DNA of 64,000 nt from Thermoplasmata archaeon. Lineage in GTDB: Archaea; Thermoplasmatota; Thermoplasmata; RBG-16-68-12; JAFNFQ01. The stretch covers positions 4,006 through 68,005 of the forward strand of contig JBGPQV010000007.1 of assembly GCA_041489255.1 (NCBI GenBank). The letters are read 5' to 3'. Below, piece by piece: positions 18,423 to 63,543 of the stretch (the first letter of the stretch is position 1; the number at the start of each line of letters is the position of its first letter). The notes under the pieces are model-generated. The model saw only the letters and a program-made list of their open reading frames with translations, was not told the origin of the DNA and did no database searches. A program made the position numbers and the translations under genes.

Positions 18423-21400
18423 ATGACAGGGGAATCTACGAAGGAGGAGCGGAGCATGGAAGCGCCAGCCCTTCGCGGCAGGTCGCGATATCTTCGTGGA
18501 CTAGCGATCGCGGTAGTCGTTCTTTCGTCGGTCCTGGCGTTGTTGCCCGAGCTGTCGCGCAATGGCGGGGCCGCGCAGCCGGTGTTCAGCCGGCCGAACG
18601 TCCGGATCGATACCGCCGCACTCGCGGCGGAGGCCTCGATGGTGGGCGGCCCGACGATTGCGGTGGACGCCGCAGGCATCCTCCACGCGGTCTGGGCTGA
18701 CACACTCACGGTCACTGACAAGGGCATATTCTATGCGAGGTCGCTCGATGACGGCACGACATGGACAGGCGGGCTCAGGATAGATCAGTCCCCCGGACCA
18801 GTCAACATCGCGCCCTCAATCACGGTGGACGCCACTGGAGGAATGCACGACGGCAACATCTATGTCGTTTGGCAACGCGGCGAGACGACGAACGTCGAGT
18901 CGCTATTCGTCGAGTCGCTCGATGGCGGGACGAGCTGGGTCAACCTGCGCACGATCGACACGGCCCCGTCCGGTTCAACGGGCATGTATCCGCGCGTTGC
19001 GGTGGACAGCGCCGGCACGGTGTATGTGGCCTACATGGCGGGCAGCGTGGGGAGATACTCGATCTCCGAGGCGATGTCTGCCGACGGCGGCGTCACTTGG
19101 TCCTTCGGTTCCATCCTCCCGCCGAGCGTGAGCTTCCAGGGATACCAGAGCATCGCCGCGAGAGGCGGGCTGGTGTGCGTGGCCTGGGAGGAGAGCACCG
19201 CGCTGAGCGACGGCCTCTGGATCTCTGCGTCGATAGACAAAGGCTTCACATGGAGCAAGAACTCGATCATCGCGTTCGGCTCAGGGATGCAGGACGCCTC
19301 GTGGGTCTCCGTGGCCGTGGACGACAGCAGCGTGATCCATGCGGCGTGGGTGGCCGCTGACGAAATGGGGAGCTCCTCGGTGGCCTACTCCAATTCGAAG
19401 GATCGCGGCTTGACGTGGACTGCCCCGGTGAAGGTCAGCGACTCCCCGTCCTCGGTCACATACTCCGCCCACAGCGTGACCGTGCTCGCTTCCTCGGGCC
19501 CCCTGTATGTTGTCTGGTCAGACAACAGGCACGGGGACTACGATGTCTACGCATCATGGTCCGCGGACCACGGCGCAACGTGGGGCGATGGCGTGCCTGA
19601 CAACGATGTGAGGGTCGACGACACGGACGAGAACGGCGTCACCCTGGACGACGCTTCATTCCAGGCCGCCTCCTCGGCAGTCAAGGACCACGACGGTGTC
19701 TACGCGATATGGTCAGACAACAGGGACGTTTCGACCTTCAACGTGTACTTCTCCGCGTTCGACCTCTCCGACGTGATGATAACCGAGATAAGAGACAGCC
19801 CCGATGGCATGGAGGAAGTCGAGATCTACAACGCTGTCAAGGATAACGTGGACTTGACGGGATGGATTCTGGAGGTCGACGGGATGCAGATATCGTTGTC
19901 GCCCCTCGGCTTGATCGGGCCGAACACCTATTGGACGATCGGCGATCCCGTTTCGTCCGGCATCCCGCGCGACATCACGCTTGGTGATGAGGGGGGCATC
20001 GTCAGGCTCCTGGATTCGACCGGGGCGGAGATTGACAGTGTGGCCTACGGCCAGCTCGGCCCCGCGCCTGACCCGATCGATGGCGAATCGGTCGCCCGAG
20101 TCCTCGTCGGGGCATCGTACCGTCAGGCTTGGACCAGGGCGCAGATCCCCACATTCGGTTCAATGAACAAAGTGCTTGCGCCGAACTCGGGCAAAGATCT
20201 CGTGCTCAACGAGGTCTTCTTCAGCGCGGCGAACCCGGATGACAGGTTCATCGAGGTCCATCTCAACGGCGTGCGGGCGCTGGACATCGGCGGATATGTC
20301 ATAGCAGGCGACGCAGCCCACGCGCTCCCATCGGTCATCCTCACGGACACCGACAGGGAGTTCGCGTTCCGCCCCTCGGACGCCCCCGCGCTCTTCAACC
20401 TGATGGACGCATCGGGCGACAATCTCTACCTGTACGACCCCTCGGGGGCTCTAGTGGACATGGTCGGGTGGAGCTCGGCACATCCGCAGGGAACGAGCAT
20501 GTCGCGCGTTCCGGACGGCTTCGGGAGCTCGAGCGGCTATGACGACGCGAGTTCCATTGCGGCGGGCTGGATGTTCGATCGTAATCCATCGTTGCCTTTC
20601 GTGTCGGTCGGCCCCGACCAGATAGGCTATGCGAATCCTGGCGACCGCGTCTATTATGCCTTGTACGCGAAGAACAAGGAATCAACCGACGCGTACGTGA
20701 ACGTCGAGGCATTCCCGAGCGGGGAGGGTTGGGTGGCGGCTCTGCTCAAGAGCGGTGATTTGACGCCCCTGGCCGATTCCCCGGGCGACCCTGACAACAC
20801 CCCCGACCTCGGACTGCTGGCGCCAGGCGCGTCAGCAGTCTTCCTCGTCGCGGTCAATGTTCCGACGATCCGCCCCGGCAACGAGTCAGAGACGACTCGC
20901 GTGATGGTTTCGATCGCGTCGGACCCGTTGGCGAGGTCGACCGCCACCCTGAAGACCATGCTCTATCCTTACGAGTCGCCGACGGCCGCCGCCAGCCCGT
21001 CCACAATATGGATCACCAGTGCCCCTCCTGCCTGTCAGCCGAAGGAATCCGTGATGCAGCTGAAGGTGTCGGGGATGGGAACGCCGGTCTACGGCGGCAA
21101 CGTCCAGGACACGATCATGGTGATGGACAGCTCCGGGAGCATGTACGACAGCGATCCGACCGACCTGAGACTGGAGGCAGCGAAGCACTATGTGGATCTC
21201 ATGAAAGCCCCGGACAGGGCCGCTGTCGTGCGCTTCGCAGACACCGCGACCCTCGTCAACGGAGATTATCTGAGCTCGGACTACGCGCGAGTCAAGGCGA
21301 ACATCGACACGATCACCACTTCGGGGGGCACGGACATCTACGACGCGATCCGCATCTCGACTGACGAGCTCATCACGTATGGAGACGACAATCACGTTTG

Positions 21401-30360: not shown

Positions 30361-31213
30361 CTATGACGGGTAGAAGACCGCGACCATGGTCCCGCGTACA
30401 TAGCGGTCCACCGCGTCTTGACCCGCCGCCATGTAACCGGCCATGTAGTAGGTGTACGTGCCCGCCGTGACGGTCTCGATCCATTGGCTCGACTGTGTCG
30501 AACCATAGACTGCCGTGGACGCCCCGGACTCGATGTAATAGACTCCCAGTTGATCGTCTATGGCGTCGCAGGTCGCCACGTCCGTCGTGATCTTGAACCA
30601 GTAGGCGTCTGTCTGGCCGCTCGTGTGACTGAGCAGATCGTACTGCCATGCGCTTATCACTATCTGGCCGTCTGCCGGGACGGTGATGGTCAGCTGCATG
30701 AAGGCTTGGCACGAGGCCGTGATGGTCGTGACCGTGCCGAAGACTGTGGAAACCATGAGTGTGCCCGGGCCCGGCGGACCCTGCAGGCCCTGCGGACCTT
30801 GCGCGCCCGCGCAGTCGAGCACGTCCACGACGAGATCGCCGTTTATGTCTTCGGTCGCCAGGTCCCCCACGCGATTGCCATTCAGGTCCCAGCAAGCAAG
30901 GCCAGTCAGGCCCGTGTTCCCGGGCAATCCCTGATTTCCCTGCAATCCCTGGTCTCCCTGAACTCCCTGGATTCCTTGGTCTCCCTTCGGCCCCGCGGGC
31001 CCCGGGAACATTACCATGCCGACCAGCGCAAGCGCCAGACCGGCGGCACCAAGTGCCAGAGCCACGCCAGCCAGCGCGTTCCCCTTGCGAGGAGGGGAGA
31101 TCGGCTCCGGCGCGGGACTCGGCGGCGGTGGCATCATCTGCGGCTGAGGCGGCGGCATTCCTGCACCTGTCGTCTGTCCTGAACTCCAACCTGACATGAT
31201 TGATTTCTCCTTT
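30361..31213 (-). CDS. collagen-like (GXX triple-helix repeat) membrane-anchored protein
   Basis: Pro-rich N-terminus, TM (ALAGVALALGAAGLALALVGMVMF), runs GPAGPKGDQGIQGVQGDQGLQGNQGLPGNTGLTGL and GAQGPQGLQGPPGPG, C-terminal beta-rich domain; ORF-track 5' extension is out-of-frame overlap. Confidence 0.6.
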
Positions 31214-37122: not shown

Positions 37123-37558
37123 CTTGAATCCCAGATATGAATGCGTCTGTTTATGAAATGAATCTCTCCCGCGGGCGTATCTTGGCAATCTCGTACCTCC
37201 TTAATCATCGAGTAAGATTCGCGGCCTCGGTTCTGACTCACAGATAGCGTGGAATATAGCTCAGAAGTCTGCTCTGGGGCGCGCATTGTTTTCTTGCCCT
37301 CACTATTTCTCGAAATCGGTCCTTGATACGGCGACTCGATTCGATTCGGAGCGTCTCGTTGGACTGTCCGCGCGATTCTTGCCCCAAACGTCGCGTCATT
37401 CCGCCGAACGCACGCGATGCTTCTTCCAGTGAAGATTCAGAGTCCATCGAGAATCGCGCGACTGGGACTGACTTGGTCGCCGTCCGGCAAAGCTCGCAGC
37501 CGCATCTCCTCCGCCGGAGGCGACCTTGTTGCCATCCGCATCAATGCCACTCCATACG

Positions 37559-38000
37559 GAACGCCTTTCATCCCAATCGGAATGGATTCCATCCCAATCT
37601 GAATCCTCTTGGGACAACTGTCCCAGACATGGGGGACAATTGCCCCCAGGTTCGTCCCGGTTGCCCCAGGCTCCATCCCGATTGCCCCGAGACCGCTCCC
37701 TGTTGTTCCGACTTCCATCCTAAAGATAGTATATGCAAGAATGTTCATCCGAATGAATGTCCCCATTGTCCCGAGTCCCGGGACAATCGTTCTCAAACCT
37801 ATCCCAGTTGTCCCCGGACCGATTTCAGTTGCCCCGGAGTCCGTCCCGGTTGTCCCCGGCTCTGGAGTAATTGCCCCCGAGTCCATCCCAATTGTCCGAG
37901 GCATCGGGGGACTGTTTTCGGGTCATCAGCTGTTGTCCGCGATTCAATTCCAATTGCCCCGAGACCTTTCCCGATTGTCCCCGCAGCCGTCCCAATCGTC
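37559..38000. repeat. tandem array of ~21 degenerate 21-bp units (consensus ~ catcccgaTTGyCCCgagac), strict phase
   Basis: TTG(T/C)CCC cores at 37609,37630,37651,37672,37693,37756,37798,37819,37840,37861,37882,37924,37944,37965 (steps of 21); one unit inverted (gggacaatcg 37771); one AT-rich unit (taaagatagtatatgc). Confidence 0.8.
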
Positions 38001-38125
38001 CCAGATGGAGGGCAAATGAAGCGGATTCCACGCGATTTCCGCGCTTCCAAGTCGCTCAGATTCCTTGCAGGGCACGTTTCGCGGCAATAGGAAATCCTTA
38101 TGACGGGAATCGAGTTCGTCATCGC

Positions 38126-51477: not shown

Positions 51478-51612
51478 GAACGACAAGCGGAATTCTGGCG
51501 GGCATTCTCGGGCAGCATGAGGAATAGCGCACCGGGGCTGGGAAACTTCCACCTCCCGCCAAAGATTTAGGTAAGCGGAAATGTCAAATACCCCCGTTGT
51601 CGTCGGTGCGAC

Positions 51613-52377
51613 GTGGCGGATACGGTCACACTGCTTCTGATTGCCGCAGCCGGCATGTCCACGGCCCTCGGTGGCATCTTGATCGTCGCGATTCGCCGCC
51701 TGACGCACCGCATGCACGACACGATTCTGGGCCTCGGCGCCGGCATCATGCTCGGAGTCTCCGTCTTCGATCTCCTCCTCCAGCTGGGCGAGCACCGGAG
51801 TGAGGACTGGCTCCTCATCGCCGCCGGGATCGTCGGCGGAACGGCAGTGGTCGCCGTCCTAATCGGAGTGTTCCGCAAGATGCCCCTCCCGATGCCCTTC
51901 GTCAAGAACTCCGCGCCCGACACGACGGGAGCCGCGTTCCTGCTCGTCATCGCCCTGATGATCCACAATCTGCCGGAAGGACTGGCCACGGGCATAGGCT
52001 ACGGACACGGTCCGACCACCTTGGGCAACAGCATCGCTGCTTCAATCGCGTTCCAGAACATCCCCGAAGGGCTGCTCGTTGCGGTGGCGGTGCTCGCCGA
52101 GACTGGTTCGAAGCGCGCGGGCTTCAGCTACGCGGTGCTCAGCGGCGCCGTCGAGCCCGTTGCGGGATATGTCGCGTACTTCGCCCTGTCAGTCTCCCCC
52201 GCAACCGTCGGAGTCGTTTCGGGCTTCGCGGCGGGTGCGATGCTCGCAGTCGTCTTCTTCCAGATGATACCGGAGAGTCACAGGCACGGCTACAGAGTGC
52301 CTGCGACTGCAGCTCTCGCAGCCGGGGTCCTGCTGGTCGTGGCGGTGAACCTAGCGCTCGGGCAGATCAGATTATGA
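51613..52377 (+). CDS. ZIP-family metal (Zn/Fe) transporter
   Basis: HNLPEGLATG and FQNIPEGL motifs, 8 TM. Confidence 0.8.
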   Translation: MADTVTLLLIAAAGMSTALGGILIVAIRRLTHRMHDTILGLGAGIMLGVSVFDLLLQLGEHRSEDWLLIAAGIVGGTAVVAVLIGVFRKMPLPMPFVKNSAPDTTGAAFLLVIALMIHNLPEGLATGIGYGHGPTTLGNSIAASIAFQNIPEGLLVAVAVLAETGSKRAGFSYAVLSGAVEPVAGYVAYFALSVSPATVGVVSGFAAGAMLAVVFFQMIPESHRHGYRVPATAALAAGVLLVVAVNLALGQIRL

Positions 52378-53477: not shown

Positions 53478-54239
53478 TCAGACAGAGAGAAGCAGTCCAG
53501 TGAAGTACATCAGCAGGATGCCAAGGGCGATTCCCGCAAACATGCTCCTCGGGGAGGTCGACAGTCTCAGGAGTTCGACCGCGACGAACAGCAAGGCACC
53601 TCCCGCCACAGAGAAGAAGAGGACGCCCAGGAGTTCTGAGTATGCCAGGGAGCCTATCACGCTCCCTATGATCGTCGGGAACCCCGCGATGAAACCCATG
53701 GCCAGAGGCTGTCTCAGCCGCATCGGCGTGTCGGACACCGGCCCAGCAATCCCGAGCCCCTCGGTCCCGTTGTGGAGCGCGAACCCGACAACGAGGGCGG
53801 TTGTCAGTGCGAACTGACCCGCCCCATAAGCGGCACCGAGGGCGAGCCCTTCGCCGAAGTTGTGCAGTCCGATTCCTAAGGCCATCATGTAGGCGGTGAG
53901 CAGCTTGGAGTCGCTTCCCGCCAAAGCGGAAGACCCGGGCGAGGTCGGTGCAACGATGCTCCCTCGCCGATGATGGAATAACAATGCGGGACCTACGAGC
54001 CCCAAGGTCAGACCGATGACGAAAAGGAGCGGACCGACTGGGGACACCTTGGCCATTTCCACGGATTCGCCCGTGACGTCAGCGAAGAGGAACATGAGTA
54101 TTCCGGTGGAAAAGCTGAGGAGCAGGCTTCTCCAATGTGGAGGGAGCCTCCTAAAGAGTGGTATTGGCATGAGCCCCAGGTAGACTGGTACCAAACCGGC
54201 GAGGATCCCGATCAGGATGGGGTTTGCGATGTCCGCCAT
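53478..54239 (-). CDS. ZIP-family metal transporter (second paralogue)
   Basis: HNFGEGLALG, HNGTEGLG motifs. Confidence 0.8.
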   Translation of the reverse strand: MADIANPILIGILAGLVPVYLGLMPIPLFRRLPPHWRSLLLSFSTGILMFLFADVTGESVEMAKVSPVGPLLFVIGLTLGLVGPALLFHHRRGSIVAPTSPGSSALAGSDSKLLTAYMMALGIGLHNFGEGLALGAAYGAGQFALTTALVVGFALHNGTEGLGIAGPVSDTPMRLRQPLAMGFIAGFPTIIGSVIGSLAYSELLGVLFFSVAGGALLFVAVELLRLSTSPRSMFAGIALGILLMYFTGLLLSV

Positions 54240-54308
54240 TGAGACAGTTGCTTACTGCATCTGCCTACTTCAAGTCTTGCGGTTTAGAGCTACCTAATTC
54301 TCTGCGCC

Positions 54309-54440
54309 TCAGGATTCTCGAATCCCGTCCACAGCCCGCTCCGCTTCCTTCTTCGGCTCCCTAGCCTCGGATAGCGCCCGACAATCGCGCAGTCCGCCCC
54401 TGCCATGATCGCATCCGAAGCGCATCAGTCGGGCGGCGAC
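54309..54440 (-). pseudogene. degenerate duplicate of pyrF 3' end (…CRALSEAREPKKEAERAVDGIRES*)
   Basis: ~85% nt identity with 1-nt indel to 55752..55860 (pyrF C-terminus …GRAIYEAKEPRKEAEQVIEGIR…). Confidence 0.65.
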
Positions 54441-55180
54441 ATACACTCTCTCCATGATGTGGGATCCTCGGACAACTGTGGGACATCCGGGGACAATCGC
54501 ATGAGATCCACGAGCAGTTCGATGCAACTTTCAGAAATCCGTCATGAACCCTCCAACGCTCCGCGCGCAACCCCAAACAATCGGAAGGACTCCCCCAACG
54601 AACCGCGCGGGATTCAAGACAATCGATAGATATCTCCGGATGGCCAAAACCCACTTCCAGACGATTGTCCGGGACTTCCAGACAACCCTCTGGGACCTCC
54701 AGAAGGATCTCTCGCGGTCCCAGACGACCATTTTGGACCATCAGAGGTCCGAATGGGGGTCCGGACGACCCGAACCACCCGCCAGACGACTCTCTGATAC
54801 CTCCAGAGGATCGTTCGGGACCTCCAGAAGACCGTCTGGCGGTCGCGGAGGGCTGAAGGAGGGGGGTTAGAGCCTTCTGACACTTCCAGACGACTGTCTG
54901 GGACTAGCTTCGGACCGTCTGACGGTTCCTCCGGACTTTCTGGCGTTGTCAGAAGACCGTCTGGCGGTTCCAGACGACTGTCTGGGACTCGCCTTGAATC
55001 CGCTGGATAAGGGATTGGATCGGCTGAAGATGCGTTCGCGTGCTCTCGCGGTCCGTCAGGACCCGCTTGATATTGGATTGAGTCGGCTGGAGGTGTGTCG
55101 GAGTGTTCTCAAGGTCCGCGAGGGTCGTCCGGGATTGGACGCGGATCGTCGAGAGGTGGGATCCAATCGGCTGATGGACG
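54440..55180. repeat. tandem array of ~35 degenerate 21-bp units (cores ggacaatcg / ccagacgactgtctggga), strict phase; related to array 37559..38000
   Basis: caatcg at 54494, 54578, 54620 (multiples of 21); units at 54654, 54675, 54717, 54780, 54801, 54822, 54885, 54948, 54969 … all in phase. Confidence 0.8.
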
Positions 55181-55261
55181 CTCTTCCGTGTCTGTTGCAA
55201 TCCTGCACACAGACCGGTCTTGTTCGCGGCGGGAAAGAATCAACAGAGGCTTTCCTCGAAT

Positions 55262-55302
55262 GAAGAGGAAAAGAAAAAAATGCCCCCCTTTTGGCGGGGG
55301 GC
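55262..55302 (-). terminator. GC hairpin + T-tract (minus-strand), candidate pyrF terminator
   Basis: gcccccc-ttttggc-ggggggc stem-loop; minus strand continues attttttttcttttcc. Confidence 0.35.
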
Positions 55303-55714
55303 TTGGGAAACGCGGGTTCGCAACCGCCAATGGACGCTACTTCATCGCTTCCTGGACCGGGACCGGCAGCGGCTCCGCAGCCGTCTGATCCCCCGCCTGC
55401 CTGACCTTGCTCCGGAGGCGCTGGAAGACCTTCGCCGACTCGCTGTTCTTCTCCACCGCCGCCATCATCATGTCGATCGTGCCCGATGTGACGACGTACG
55501 CGCGGTGCATTGTCGTGGGATTCTGTACCTCGCCGCTGTCAAAAGCCGACTACGAGTCAGCCAACGGGTGGATGAGGAATCTTGCGAATGTCGCAGGCAT
55601 TCGTTTCCGAGATGTTGTCTATTTCGAGGGCCAACCATCGGTATTCGACAATGACTCTAGAAACGCTGGGCCACCAGCAAGACGGAATCGTGTGCATAAC
55701 GGAAAGTGGATATC

Positions 55715-56362
55715 CTAAGATCGGAAAGTTACGCGAATGCCTTCAATGACCTGTTCCGCTTCCTTCCTCGGCTCCTTCGCCTCGTATATCGCCCGCCCCA
55801 CGATCACGTAATCCGCCCCTGCTCTGATTGCGTCGGCAGCGCTCCCGCCCTGCGCACCGACTCCAGGCGTCGCGATGCGGAGACTCCCGACAATCTCCCT
55901 CATCCTCCTAATCCTTTCCGGCCTCGTGGCGGGAGCGATGATGCCAGTTGCCCCGACCTTCACCGCCATCCTCGCGATCTCCTCCGCTATCGGCGCGCTG
56001 AACCTCTCAGCCCCGGGGTGGCTCATCTCCGTCACAACGAACACGTCGCCCTTGGCGGCATCCACGCACGCTTTCACCGAGTCCTCGCCTGGGAAGCCGT
56101 GGACGATCACGCCCGATGCCCCGCGGCGGAAAGCCTCCTGCACGATGAGGCGGTTGGTGTTCGGGATGTCGGCGACCTTGAAGTCGCAGAGCACGTCCGA
56201 CTCCTTCGCGAGCTTTGTGATGATTTCGGGTCCGACCCCTAGGATGATCGGCCAGTTGACCTTGATGGCGTCAACGAGGTTTTTCACTTCGCCCGCGATT
56301 TTGAGCGCCCTCTTTTCCTCCACGACATCGAGCGCCAGAATCAGATGAGAGTCGAGCTTCAT
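55715..56362 (-). CDS. pyrF: orotidine 5'-phosphate decarboxylase
   Basis: LALDV…, DFKVADIPNT, catalytic K/D pattern, GVGAQGG phosphate-binding end. Confidence 0.85.
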   Translation of the reverse strand: MKLDSHLILALDVVEEKRALKIAGEVKNLVDAIKVNWPIILGVGPEIITKLAKESDVLCDFKVADIPNTNRLIVQEAFRRGASGVIVHGFPGEDSVKACVDAAKGDVFVVTEMSHPGAERFSAPIAEEIARMAVKVGATGIIAPATRPERIRRMREIVGSLRIATPGVGAQGGSAADAIRAGADYVIVGRAIYEAKEPRKEAEQVIEGIRVTFRS

Positions 56363-62630: not shown

Positions 62631-63543
62631 GCGGCCCGGCAGAATCGCCATCGCCCTCCCGCTTCCTGTAGATCCTCCCGACGTACTTCCTGTAGTCGTG
62701 GTTCGGTCCCTTCCGCCAAGGCAGCTCGAACAGGCCGTTGATGTTCACGTACAATTCGGGCAAGAGCCAGAAGCAAAAGACCAGGAGCATGACGAGGACC
62801 AGCACCGCCAGCCCCTTCCCCCAGTACCCGTGCGCCAGCTCGAATTCGACGTGCTGCACGTCGAATGAATAGATCACCACGAAGTTCCTCACCAGGTTCA
62901 TGAAGTAGGTCACCGGGATGACGACGGCGGCTGCCAGGAGCTTCCTCTTTGGCGGCTCCTTCACGCCGAGGATCATCGCGACCGCGATGGCGATGCCCTG
63001 GATTGCGGTGCACGCGAGGATGATGTGGACGACCGGCCTGCCGACGGAGTTGAGCAGGGGCGCGTAGATATCCTCCCCGTTGACGCGGTAGAATGGCGGG
63101 TTGCCCACGAGCGTGGCGGGTCCCGCGGTGTATGAGACGTTCGCGGCGCCGAGCAGGGCGGCCGTCTGCTGGGTCACCGCCTCGATGAGCCATGCGGAGA
63201 GCTGGGGGATCCTGTCCACGACGAAGTAGATTGTCGACGCGATGAAGGCGGCACCCGCCAGGAACCTCAGCGGCTCGTACTCATCGTTCCACTGGTACGA
63301 GAGTCGCTCGTGATATGCGAAGAAGAGGAAGGCGATGAACGCCCCGATGCTCCCGAGCACGTTCAGCAGGTCGAGGGAGAAAGCGTATGATGGGGCCTGG
63401 GCCAGCCAGAATATCGCGAAGATGGCCCATCCGGCCGCGCGGAACTGGTGACACCTCCTCTTCTTCCAGAGGAACCCTATTCCCAAGGCCACCAGCCCCG
63501 AGAACAGGAGAATGTCGTTGAGGATCCTGAGTTCGCCCGCCAT
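62617..63543 (-). CDS. polytopic membrane protein, exosortase/archaeosortase-family-like
   Basis: ~8 TM; candidate active-site Cys in PVVHIILACTAIQGIA (cf. exosortase P..V…ACSGI.S) and NLVRN Arg motif. Confidence 0.45.
   Translation of the reverse strand: MAGELRILNDILLFSGLVALGIGFLWKKRRCHQFRAAGWAIFAIFWLAQAPSYAFSLDLLNVLGSIGAFIAFLFFAYHERLSYQWNDEYEPLRFLAGAAFIASTIYFVVDRIPQLSAWLIEAVTQQTAALLGAANVSYTAGPATLVGNPPFYRVNGEDIYAPLLNSVGRPVVHIILACTAIQGIAIAVAMILGVKEPPKRKLLAAAVVIPVTYFMNLVRNFVVIYSFDVQHVEFELAHGYWGKGLAVLVLVMLLVFCFWLLPELYVNINGLFELPWRKGPNHDYRKYVGRIYRKREGDGDSAGPPRPS

Follow-up and report, generated by a model that had tools for sequence, protein, structure and literature searches.

A dispersed satellite-like element of Thermoplasmata-like archaea carries a conserved pentamer once per helical turn and may serve as an array of protein-binding sites

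The stretch of DNA analysed here (the window) comprises 64,000 nucleotides of a Thermoplasmata archaeon (assembly GCA_041489255.1, contig JBGPQV010000007.1, positions 4,006 to 68,005 of the forward strand). Between pyrF, which codes for orotidine 5'-phosphate decarboxylase, and the gene for a ZIP-family metal transporter, the window contains an array of about 36 degenerate units with a period of 21 bp (54428..55209, minus strand). This array belongs to a dispersed, satellite-like element that occurs in a group of uncultured Thermoplasmata-like archaea. It repeats the pentamer CCAGA and its reverse complement TCTGG once per helical turn, and comparison of orthologous copies indicates that these pentamers are under purifying selection while the remaining array drifts neutrally. 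With moderate confidence we interpret the element as a helically phased set of double-stranded DNA binding sites for a sequence-specific protein, and not as an operator of the ZIP gene.

Periodicity and the conserved pentamer

The identity of segment 54440-55180 with itself at a lag of 21 positions is 0.465, compared to a mean of 0.263 over lags 1-90 (z 4.2), and the next-highest values occur at lags 42, 63 and 84. In a sliding scan the lag-21 excess spans 54428-55209. These results confirm the claim of a preliminary description, made from the sequence alone, that a long and non-random 21-bp-phased array lies upstream of the ZIP gene. Segmentation with a profile and arrangement in rows of 21 resolve the approximately 36 units, which share about 47% identity with each other; a 22-bp unit is offset by a 20-bp unit, and the net phase is kept. 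The units abut without spacers, their variable parts measure 5-6 bp, and the G+C content of the array is 58%. On the minus strand, which is also the strand of pyrF and ZIP, a central unit reads roughly TCGTCTGGAAGTCCCAGACAG, and the part from 55210 to 54990 follows a super-period of 63 bp. Because the units are degenerate, Tandem Repeats Finder (TRF) detects three short pieces alone (54653-54703, 54939-54985 and 55000-55118, the last with a period of 63).

The dominant core of the array is CCAGA/TCTGG, with 15 exact sites or about 21 per kb as opposed to 2.3 per kb in the rest of the window. The preliminary description had named a different core, GGACAAT. The cores that it quoted do exist, with GGACAA at 54470 and 54491, CGATTGTCC around 54661-54669, and CCAGACGACTGTCTGG at 54886 and 54970, but cores of the GGACAA/GGGACA type are confined to the ZIP-proximal edge. 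Copy comparison and a motif check delimit these edge units, with GGGACA/TTGTCC cores, to 54424..54517 (minus strand); they are common only to copies of the same insertion (the related loci L004 and L087) and lie outside the dispersed block. CCAGA is followed by TCTGG at 11 bp (31 cases), TCTGG by CCAGA at 10 bp (25 cases), and pentamers of the same orientation recur at 21 bp (30 cases). As a result of this alternation, every turn of the helix presents the word on the same side, in alternating orientation. Insertions and deletions among six aligned copies comprise whole units of 21 or 42 bp.

The copy at L004, next to a ZIP protein with 92% identity, aligns with that of the window unit for unit with one exact 21-bp indel. 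The two arrays are 80.4% identical (19.6% divergence), and 332 four-fold degenerate sites of the ZIP, pyrF and Ras-like genes are 78.3% identical between the same two genomes (21.7% divergence). By this measure, the array as a whole evolves at the neutral rate. The constraint on the motif was determined by setting the CCAGA/TCTGG columns on one copy and measuring divergence between two others. With columns defined on L081, the window and L004 differ at 2 of 80 motif positions and at 107 of 454 other array positions (Fisher p 1.4e-6); with columns defined on L012, they differ at 0 of 71 and 109 of 463, respectively (Fisher p 4e-8). Hence, divergence between orthologous copies is 0-2.5% in the pentamers and 23.5% at other array positions. 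Three further combinations of copies gave 3-8% in the motif columns and 20-27% elsewhere. The protected footprint is exactly C-C-A-G-A, with per-position divergences of 0.085, 0.012, 0.123, 0 and 0, flanked by neighbours at 0.15-0.48, and both orientations of the pentamer are equally conserved. This pattern shows purifying selection on the pentamers and neutral drift of the remaining array.

A separate observation concerns the spacers. At positions +6, +9 and +10 after CCAGA (window 54640-55000 and other copies), divergence reaches 0.39-0.48, about twice the rate of four-fold degenerate sites, and the variation is mostly purine/pyrimidine alternation of the kind CG to TG/CA.

The insertion site and the dispersed copies

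The array sits in a 1475-bp gap between pyrF (55715..56362) and ZIP (53478..54239), 200-970 bp upstream of the ZIP start codon; all features of this locus are given on the minus strand. With respect to the array, pyrF is the upstream and ZIP the downstream neighbour. The same spacer measures 54 bp in L085 (the bin_16 genome GCA_017885655.1, with a ZIP gene of the same 90% cluster) and 59 bp in L007 (ZIP 86% identical), where the gene order is kept. ZIP is intact in both. Comparison with these empty sites reveals two copies of the pyrF 3' end. The original end, collinear with the empty site of L085, persists as a frameshifted relic (54319..54423), and the second copy (55734..55842) is now the working end of pyrF. 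The two copies of this 94-109-bp piece are 75% identical and bracket an insert of about 1.3 kb (54424-55733). Since the same duplication is also present in L004 and L087, all three loci descend from one event. Insertion in a common ancestor, or excision through recombination between the pyrF copies, can explain the pattern of presence and absence. In the lineage of the window, a copy of the element landed between pyrF and ZIP along with the duplicated pyrF 3' end. The native pyrF-ZIP spacer with the ZIP upstream region (54240..54318) is conserved with or without the insert, as seen by comparison with L085, L086 and L007. Since these approximately 80 bp, which separate the relic from the start of ZIP, match the empty sites, whatever drives ZIP in the relatives is still present below the insert.

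On its pyrF side, the block is bordered by a G+C-rich, terminator-like hairpin followed by a T-run (55282..55302; GCCCCCCGCCAAAAGGGGGGC ATTTTTTT), which accompanies the block in most copies, and by a 57-codon pseudo-ORF (open reading frame) at 55337..55510 that shows no codon-phase bias (substitutions by phase 15/14/17). Together they correspond to the 3' end and terminator of an uncharacterised gene of 128-166 amino acids (aa), gene X, that is intact beside the copy at L116 (5215..5715). A small winged-helix gene (4688-5071) also lies upstream of that copy, and directly downstream (L116:7081-9017) follow an AbiEi-like antitoxin gene and a 287-aa ORF. The two winged-helix proteins, one encoded near L012 and one near L116, show no clear relationship. 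At L087, an intact gene for a minimal nucleotidyltransferase (MNT; PF01909; 4334-4660, minus strand) separates pyrF from the array, and the window sequence at this place is unrelated. The pyrF-side stretch behaves as a variable hotspot between genomes. A contig of the metagenome-assembled genome (MAG) GCA_041481165.1 matches the window over 20.5 kb with 5 mismatches. Among named relatives, the ABC ATPase encoded in the window is closest to proteins from Thermoplasmata and Methanomassiliicoccales MAGs (55-59% identity).

A profile search delimits the core block of the dispersed element to 54518..55229 (minus strand). In a profile of five copies, this block aligns with positions 1-747, and full-length copies occupy at least seven unrelated loci. 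Each element comprises about 35 degenerate units of 21 bp. The bin_16 genome lacks the array at pyrF-ZIP, yet contains three copies of the block elsewhere, which are 80-86% identical to that of the window and collinear unit for unit. Their neighbours are genes for NFACT and a MarR-like protein, for the small subunit of primase and a TPR protein, and for dCTP deaminase and Trm5. When metagenome contigs were scanned for a signature of 24 bases that are invariant in the block, 17 loci were identified; almost all are full-length profile matches of about 730-750 bp, and two are rearranged or split. Metagenome 3300032118 alone contributed five copies on contigs of 63-250 kb. When the flanks of these and the earlier copies were clustered, at least seven different insertion loci emerged. 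Pairwise identity among 18 copies ranges from 0.67 to 1.00 with a median of 0.81.

The copies have ragged ends. The position at which homology begins on the pyrF side varies among them (window 55469, about 55364 or about 55232); at the opposite end, similarity fades around 54550, and two loci share a further 250 bp. L114 and L112 each combine the upstream flank of one insertion locus with the downstream flank of another, and L112 also contains an internally inverted piece of the array. These chimeric flanks suggest recombination between dispersed copies. Inspection of neighbouring genes revealed no transposase or integrase beside any copy, and neither terminal inverted repeats nor short target duplications were noticed at the copies. 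The 109-bp pyrF piece at the window locus is the sole flanking direct duplication, with none at L012, L025 or L081. A plasmid or phage origin was rejected on the ground that BLAST searches against PLSDB and INPHARED returned no match. Judging from the copies compared, the spread of the element looks like copying of segments together with bits of their former surroundings, combined with recombination between copies.

Array 1 and alternative explanations

Elsewhere in the window, the only region with a comparable lag-21 signal is array 1 (37446..38047, plus strand), which the preliminary description had assigned to the same half-site family. Profiles, local alignments and motif counts do not bear out this assignment. 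The nhmmer profile of five copies of the ZIP-side array (array 2) did not match array 1 at E<1e-3, and array 1 as a query found only itself across all compared loci. In shuffle-controlled local alignments, the core and distal parts of array 2 align with array 1 at the level of shuffled sequence (z<1.5). They detect weak similarity only at 54424-54548 (z 4.8), through the common word GATTGTCCCCG; this is the ZIP-proximal part outside the dispersed block, and the only part that resembles array 1. The enriched motifs also differ. Array 1 has GTCCC and TTGYCC cores, mostly in direct orientation, with GTCCC at 26.6 per kb, GGACA enriched and TTGYCC at 21-bp spacing. In the block of array 2, GGACA occurs at 1.4 per kb, which is below background. 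Because L108 (ABC ATPase 88% identical) and L106 (81%) have gaps of 250-270 bp at the corresponding site, array 1 is lineage-specific. L105 carries a different, non-periodic insert there with a called 256-aa ORF, and was rejected as an orthologue of array 1 for this reason. The two arrays, as far as these comparisons tell, share the 21-bp architecture and the status of insertions, not a repeat family.

Several reading frames of array 1 are open (255, 136 and 155 codons; window 37323-38090 on the plus and 37437-37904 on the minus strand), and neither these ORFs nor the 256-aa ORF of L105 match a Pfam family. Moderate lag-21 excesses (0.20-0.22), weaker than those of the two arrays, occur at window positions 62680-63092, 51610-51947 and 19420-19809 and are probably due to coding periodicity or repeat domains. 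TRF also reports tandem repeats with periods of 9, 18 and 27 bp at 30766-30986, presumably a coding low-complexity repeat.

Could array 2 encode a protein or a structured RNA? The heptad-looking ORFs pointed out in the preliminary description are present (54544..54870 and 54946..55263), and they could belong to a coding or recently pseudogenised heptad-repeat gene on the plus strand (54544..55263, one internal stop) similar to QNRLWE-repeat proteins. In L081 and L012, this frame runs for 272-327 codons without a stop, and the Q-x-x-L/V-W heptads resemble real proteins of L041 and L045. Unlike those in ZIP (12/8/37), however, substitutions in the array between the window and L004 are spread equally over the three codon positions (51/40/39), and in the reading frame of the longest open stretch, five copies give equally even counts in each of their ten pairwise comparisons. 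Moreover, the other frames are nearly as open, gene callers return inconsistent ORFs or none, and the array ORFs have no Pfam match. We rejected a coding heptad repeat on account of the codon phases and give this reading hardly any credence. A non-coding RNA of tandem 21-nt hairpins (CCAGAC-loop-GUCUGG), which would serve either to soak up an RNA-binding protein or to be processed into small RNAs, would accommodate the observations that every unit can form a 5-6-bp stem with either neighbouring arm, that a few local pairs have changed on both sides, and that a terminator-like hairpin borders the block. On the other hand, RNAalifold on five copies assigns an unfavourable covariation term of +8.7 kcal/mol, and broken arms are not compensated. 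One count of arm pairs gave 301 Watson-Crick, 16 G-U, 18 C-A and 20 other pairs, and over the arms CCAGA-N6-TCTGG and TCTGG-N5-CCAGA in six copies the non-Watson-Crick pairs number 16-18 G-U, 18-21 C-A and 19-20 other. Since they are split evenly among these three types, pairing is protected on neither strand. What is conserved is the sequence of the arm itself, beyond its ability to pair, and Rfam at the gathering threshold identifies one tRNA and nothing else in the whole window. With a positive covariation term and no wobble or strand asymmetry, conserved RNA structure was rejected, and we regard the hairpin RNA as improbable.

The remaining alternatives concern the function of the array as DNA. 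The location 200-970 bp upstream of the ZIP start and the palindromic units in helical phase could suggest a cis-regulatory operator array, shared with the ABC transporter next to array 1 and responsive to metal limitation. The preliminary description had raised the idea of such a shared promoter-proximal element of metal and ABC transporters. The empty sites of L085 and L007, where ZIP persists with a gap of 54-59 bp, contradict this reading. It is also at odds with the native 80 bp retained upstream of ZIP, with the copies of the block at loci unrelated to metals, and with the different motif of array 1, which is likewise absent from relatives. We consider it very unlikely. The other option mentioned in the preliminary description, a mobile repeat, fared better and is the one that our findings favour. 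In its strict form, this option describes a selfish satellite without host function, in which CCAGA is kept only for the machinery that copies or moves the repeat, such as a recombinase, a transposase or template switching during replication. Variable presence among close relatives, ragged ends with pieces of former flanks (the 3' end of gene X, and up to 250 bp of shared downstream sequence), the chimeric flanks of L114 and L112, and the location of copies in variable spots near toxin-antitoxin or abortive-infection-like genes (MNT at L087, AbiEi at L116) are all in line with such a repeat. Although a selfish repeat is a plausible account of the spread, we judge an element devoid of host function to be unlikely. 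Copies lack an adjacent transposase or integrase as well as visible terminal inverted repeats and short target duplications, and orthologous copies have remained at their sites for a time sufficient to accumulate 20% divergence. Furthermore, each copy contains some 30 or more internal sites that are all conserved, although a mobilising enzyme normally needs the ends alone.

The reading that we prefer, phased binding sites on duplex DNA, accounts for a word that is conserved in both orientations, once per turn, and that is neither compensated nor tolerant of wobble pairs. This is the pattern predicted for recognition of duplex DNA by a symmetric protein, and not for an RNA stem or a drifting satellite. 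The pentamers would be binding sites for a protein that is probably dimeric and oligomerising, and each element would form a high-capacity landing pad for it. Such a landing pad could help to organise or segregate the chromosome, act as a roadblock or insulator (behind terminators), or titrate the protein. Several points weigh against this proposal. Few independent lineages were compared, and the 18 aligned copies include many orthologues that are almost identical. Alignments of repeats tend to anchor on motifs, although those used here are nearly gap-free at about 80% identity. Conservation of the motif could serve propagation of the element itself, for example as a recognition site for a recombinase, or it could reflect sequence-specific recognition of a transcript. 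Finally, searches with Pfam and NCBIfam identified neither a gene shared by the flanks of the archaeal arrays and of similar bacterial arrays nor a binder.

Similar arrays and known systems

These bacterial arrays were detected when 185,579 species genomes were scanned for pairs of consecutive units of the form YCAGA-N6-TCTGR-N5. The scan returned 74 loci, of which about 24 look like chance matches; by our estimate, roughly 10-20 are expected at random. About 50 loci are located in arrays of 200-800 bp with a 21-bp period in about 40 bacterial and archaeal genomes, including Bacteroidota, Verrucomicrobiota, Spirochaetota, Acidobacteriota, Planctomycetota, Oscillospiraceae, Obscuribacteraceae and others. 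Most of these arrays are intergenic, and several genomes contain three to five of them with a common, genome-specific extension of the dyad. The flanks of the bacterial arrays have no common neighbouring gene. Because the scan pattern itself selects for motif and period, these arrays are a lead and not evidence of one family. One may speculate, though we find it doubtful, that they represent a class of chromosomal "phased-word arrays" that is not confined to this archaeal lineage: long 21-bp arrays with one word per helix face in alternating orientation, present in several copies per genome, and used as platforms for a chromosome-organising or segregation protein.

Bacterial genomes with several arrays include one MAG of the Oscillospiraceae (L034, L040, L049, L057 and L064) and one of the Bacteroidetes (L024, L029, L070 and L083), as well as those represented by L030, L035 and L074; unit dyads in such bacterial genomes are TCAGAG..CTCTGA and CAGAAA..TTTCTG. 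Two contigs labelled as giant virus (L090:4282 and L091:2041) carry a near-perfect 21-bp array with a lag-21 identity of 0.89 and the unit TCAGAGTCATTTCTGGATTTA. In a control with permuted pentamers on viral contigs, the real motif gave 2 matches and the controls 5 and 8, counts that are too small to judge whether arrays of the CAGA type stand out. Coding repeats are a source of false positives in motif scans of this kind. L045:3631-4422 and L041:3997-4770 (minus) encode Thermoproteota and Calditenuaceae proteins with true heptad repeats (NQNRLWEEVRALRE), and their DNA fits CCAGA-N6-TCTGG at a 21-bp period. We rejected both as members of the family on the basis of their coding repeats (QNRLWEEVRALRE).

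Dispersed non-coding satellites are rare in prokaryotes, with families described in Leptospira interrogans and Methanocella conradii (Subirana & Messeguer 2019, PMC6749651). The nearest described kind to the present element is this rare "transposed non-coding satellite" of prokaryotes (PMC6749651), which also consists of tandem, head-to-tail, non-coding repeats with a family at several loci. The element has tandem units of one length, is non-coding, and has related arrays at several loci, three of them in bin_16. In contrast to the documented satellites (PMC6749651), its units are old and degenerate (about 47% identity), the array of about 750 bp is copied as a whole block, its period of 21 bp corresponds to two turns of the helix, and a 5-bp word in each half-unit is under strong purifying selection.

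In its working principle, the element would most resemble centromere and iteron arrays and the SegB sites scattered over archaeal chromosomes, which share an AGA..TCT core with it (PMC12284271). Centromere and iteron arrays (parC/ParR, sopC/SopB, omega heptads, lambda-type iterons) likewise present short words in helical phase, direct or inverted, and load many copies of one DNA-binding protein; for the element, binding is a prediction from sequence. The architecture and the selection on the motif would fit a partition centromere. Known arrays of this type contain a handful to a dozen sites, whereas the element has about 70 half-sites per array and a family of at least seven copies. No operon of parA/segA with a centromere-binding protein lies within 10 kb on either side of the copy in the window, and both TCTAGA and AGA-S-TCT, from the SegB consensus TCTAGA-S-TCTAGA, are absent from 54424-55310. 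The period of 21 bp falls within the 17-22 bp of phased repeats in iteron-type origins. The copy in the window has neither an adjacent initiator gene (rep, orc1/cdc6) nor an AT-rich unwinding element; its neighbours are pyrF, ZIP and Ras-like GTPases. Other copies are adjacent to genes for NFACT, primase, dCTP deaminase and AbiEi, and no partition or initiator gene is adjacent to any copy.

Like REP/BIME sequences (PMC3733652), the element consists of extragenic palindromic units in alternating clusters that are dispersed and often located behind gene ends. It differs from them by units of 21 bp with arms of 5-6 bp, and by few long arrays instead of hundreds of short clusters (PMC3733652). Moreover, pairing in the element is not maintained when an arm mutates, as the arm-pair counts above document. 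The end tetranucleotide GTAG/CGTC of REP/BIME (PMC3733652) is not conserved in the element, where CCAGA is the sole footprint. Borg elements are another archaeal case of intergenic tandem direct repeats with gain and loss of units (PMC9879509). Their repeats are reported to have formed recently, each site giving rise to its own, and to be all but missing from host genomes (PMC9879509). The arrays described here are degenerate, have been passed on between species, and were copied from locus to locus in whole blocks. A CRISPR array was rejected because the units abut, the variable parts measure only 5-6 bp, and no cas gene is among the neighbours. TIGR arrays reportedly consist of 36-nt units with two spacers and lie beside a Tas gene with a Nop domain; with a period of 21 bp and no Nop-domain neighbour, the array was rejected as a member of this type.

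Compact archaeal genomes rarely keep about 1 kb of non-coding DNA. The satellite family described here bears a distinct mark of function, with a 5-bp word that is about tenfold better conserved than neutral sites and that occurs some 30 or more times per copy, once per turn. It also corrects a tempting misreading, since a transporter gene need not be regulated by the repeat array that lies upstream of it. The pattern predicts that this uncultured Thermoplasmata-like lineage would contain an abundant sequence-specific DNA-binding protein, which may have a chromosome-level role in organisation, segregation, insulation or titration, and the CCAGA array provides a concrete sequence bait for finding it.

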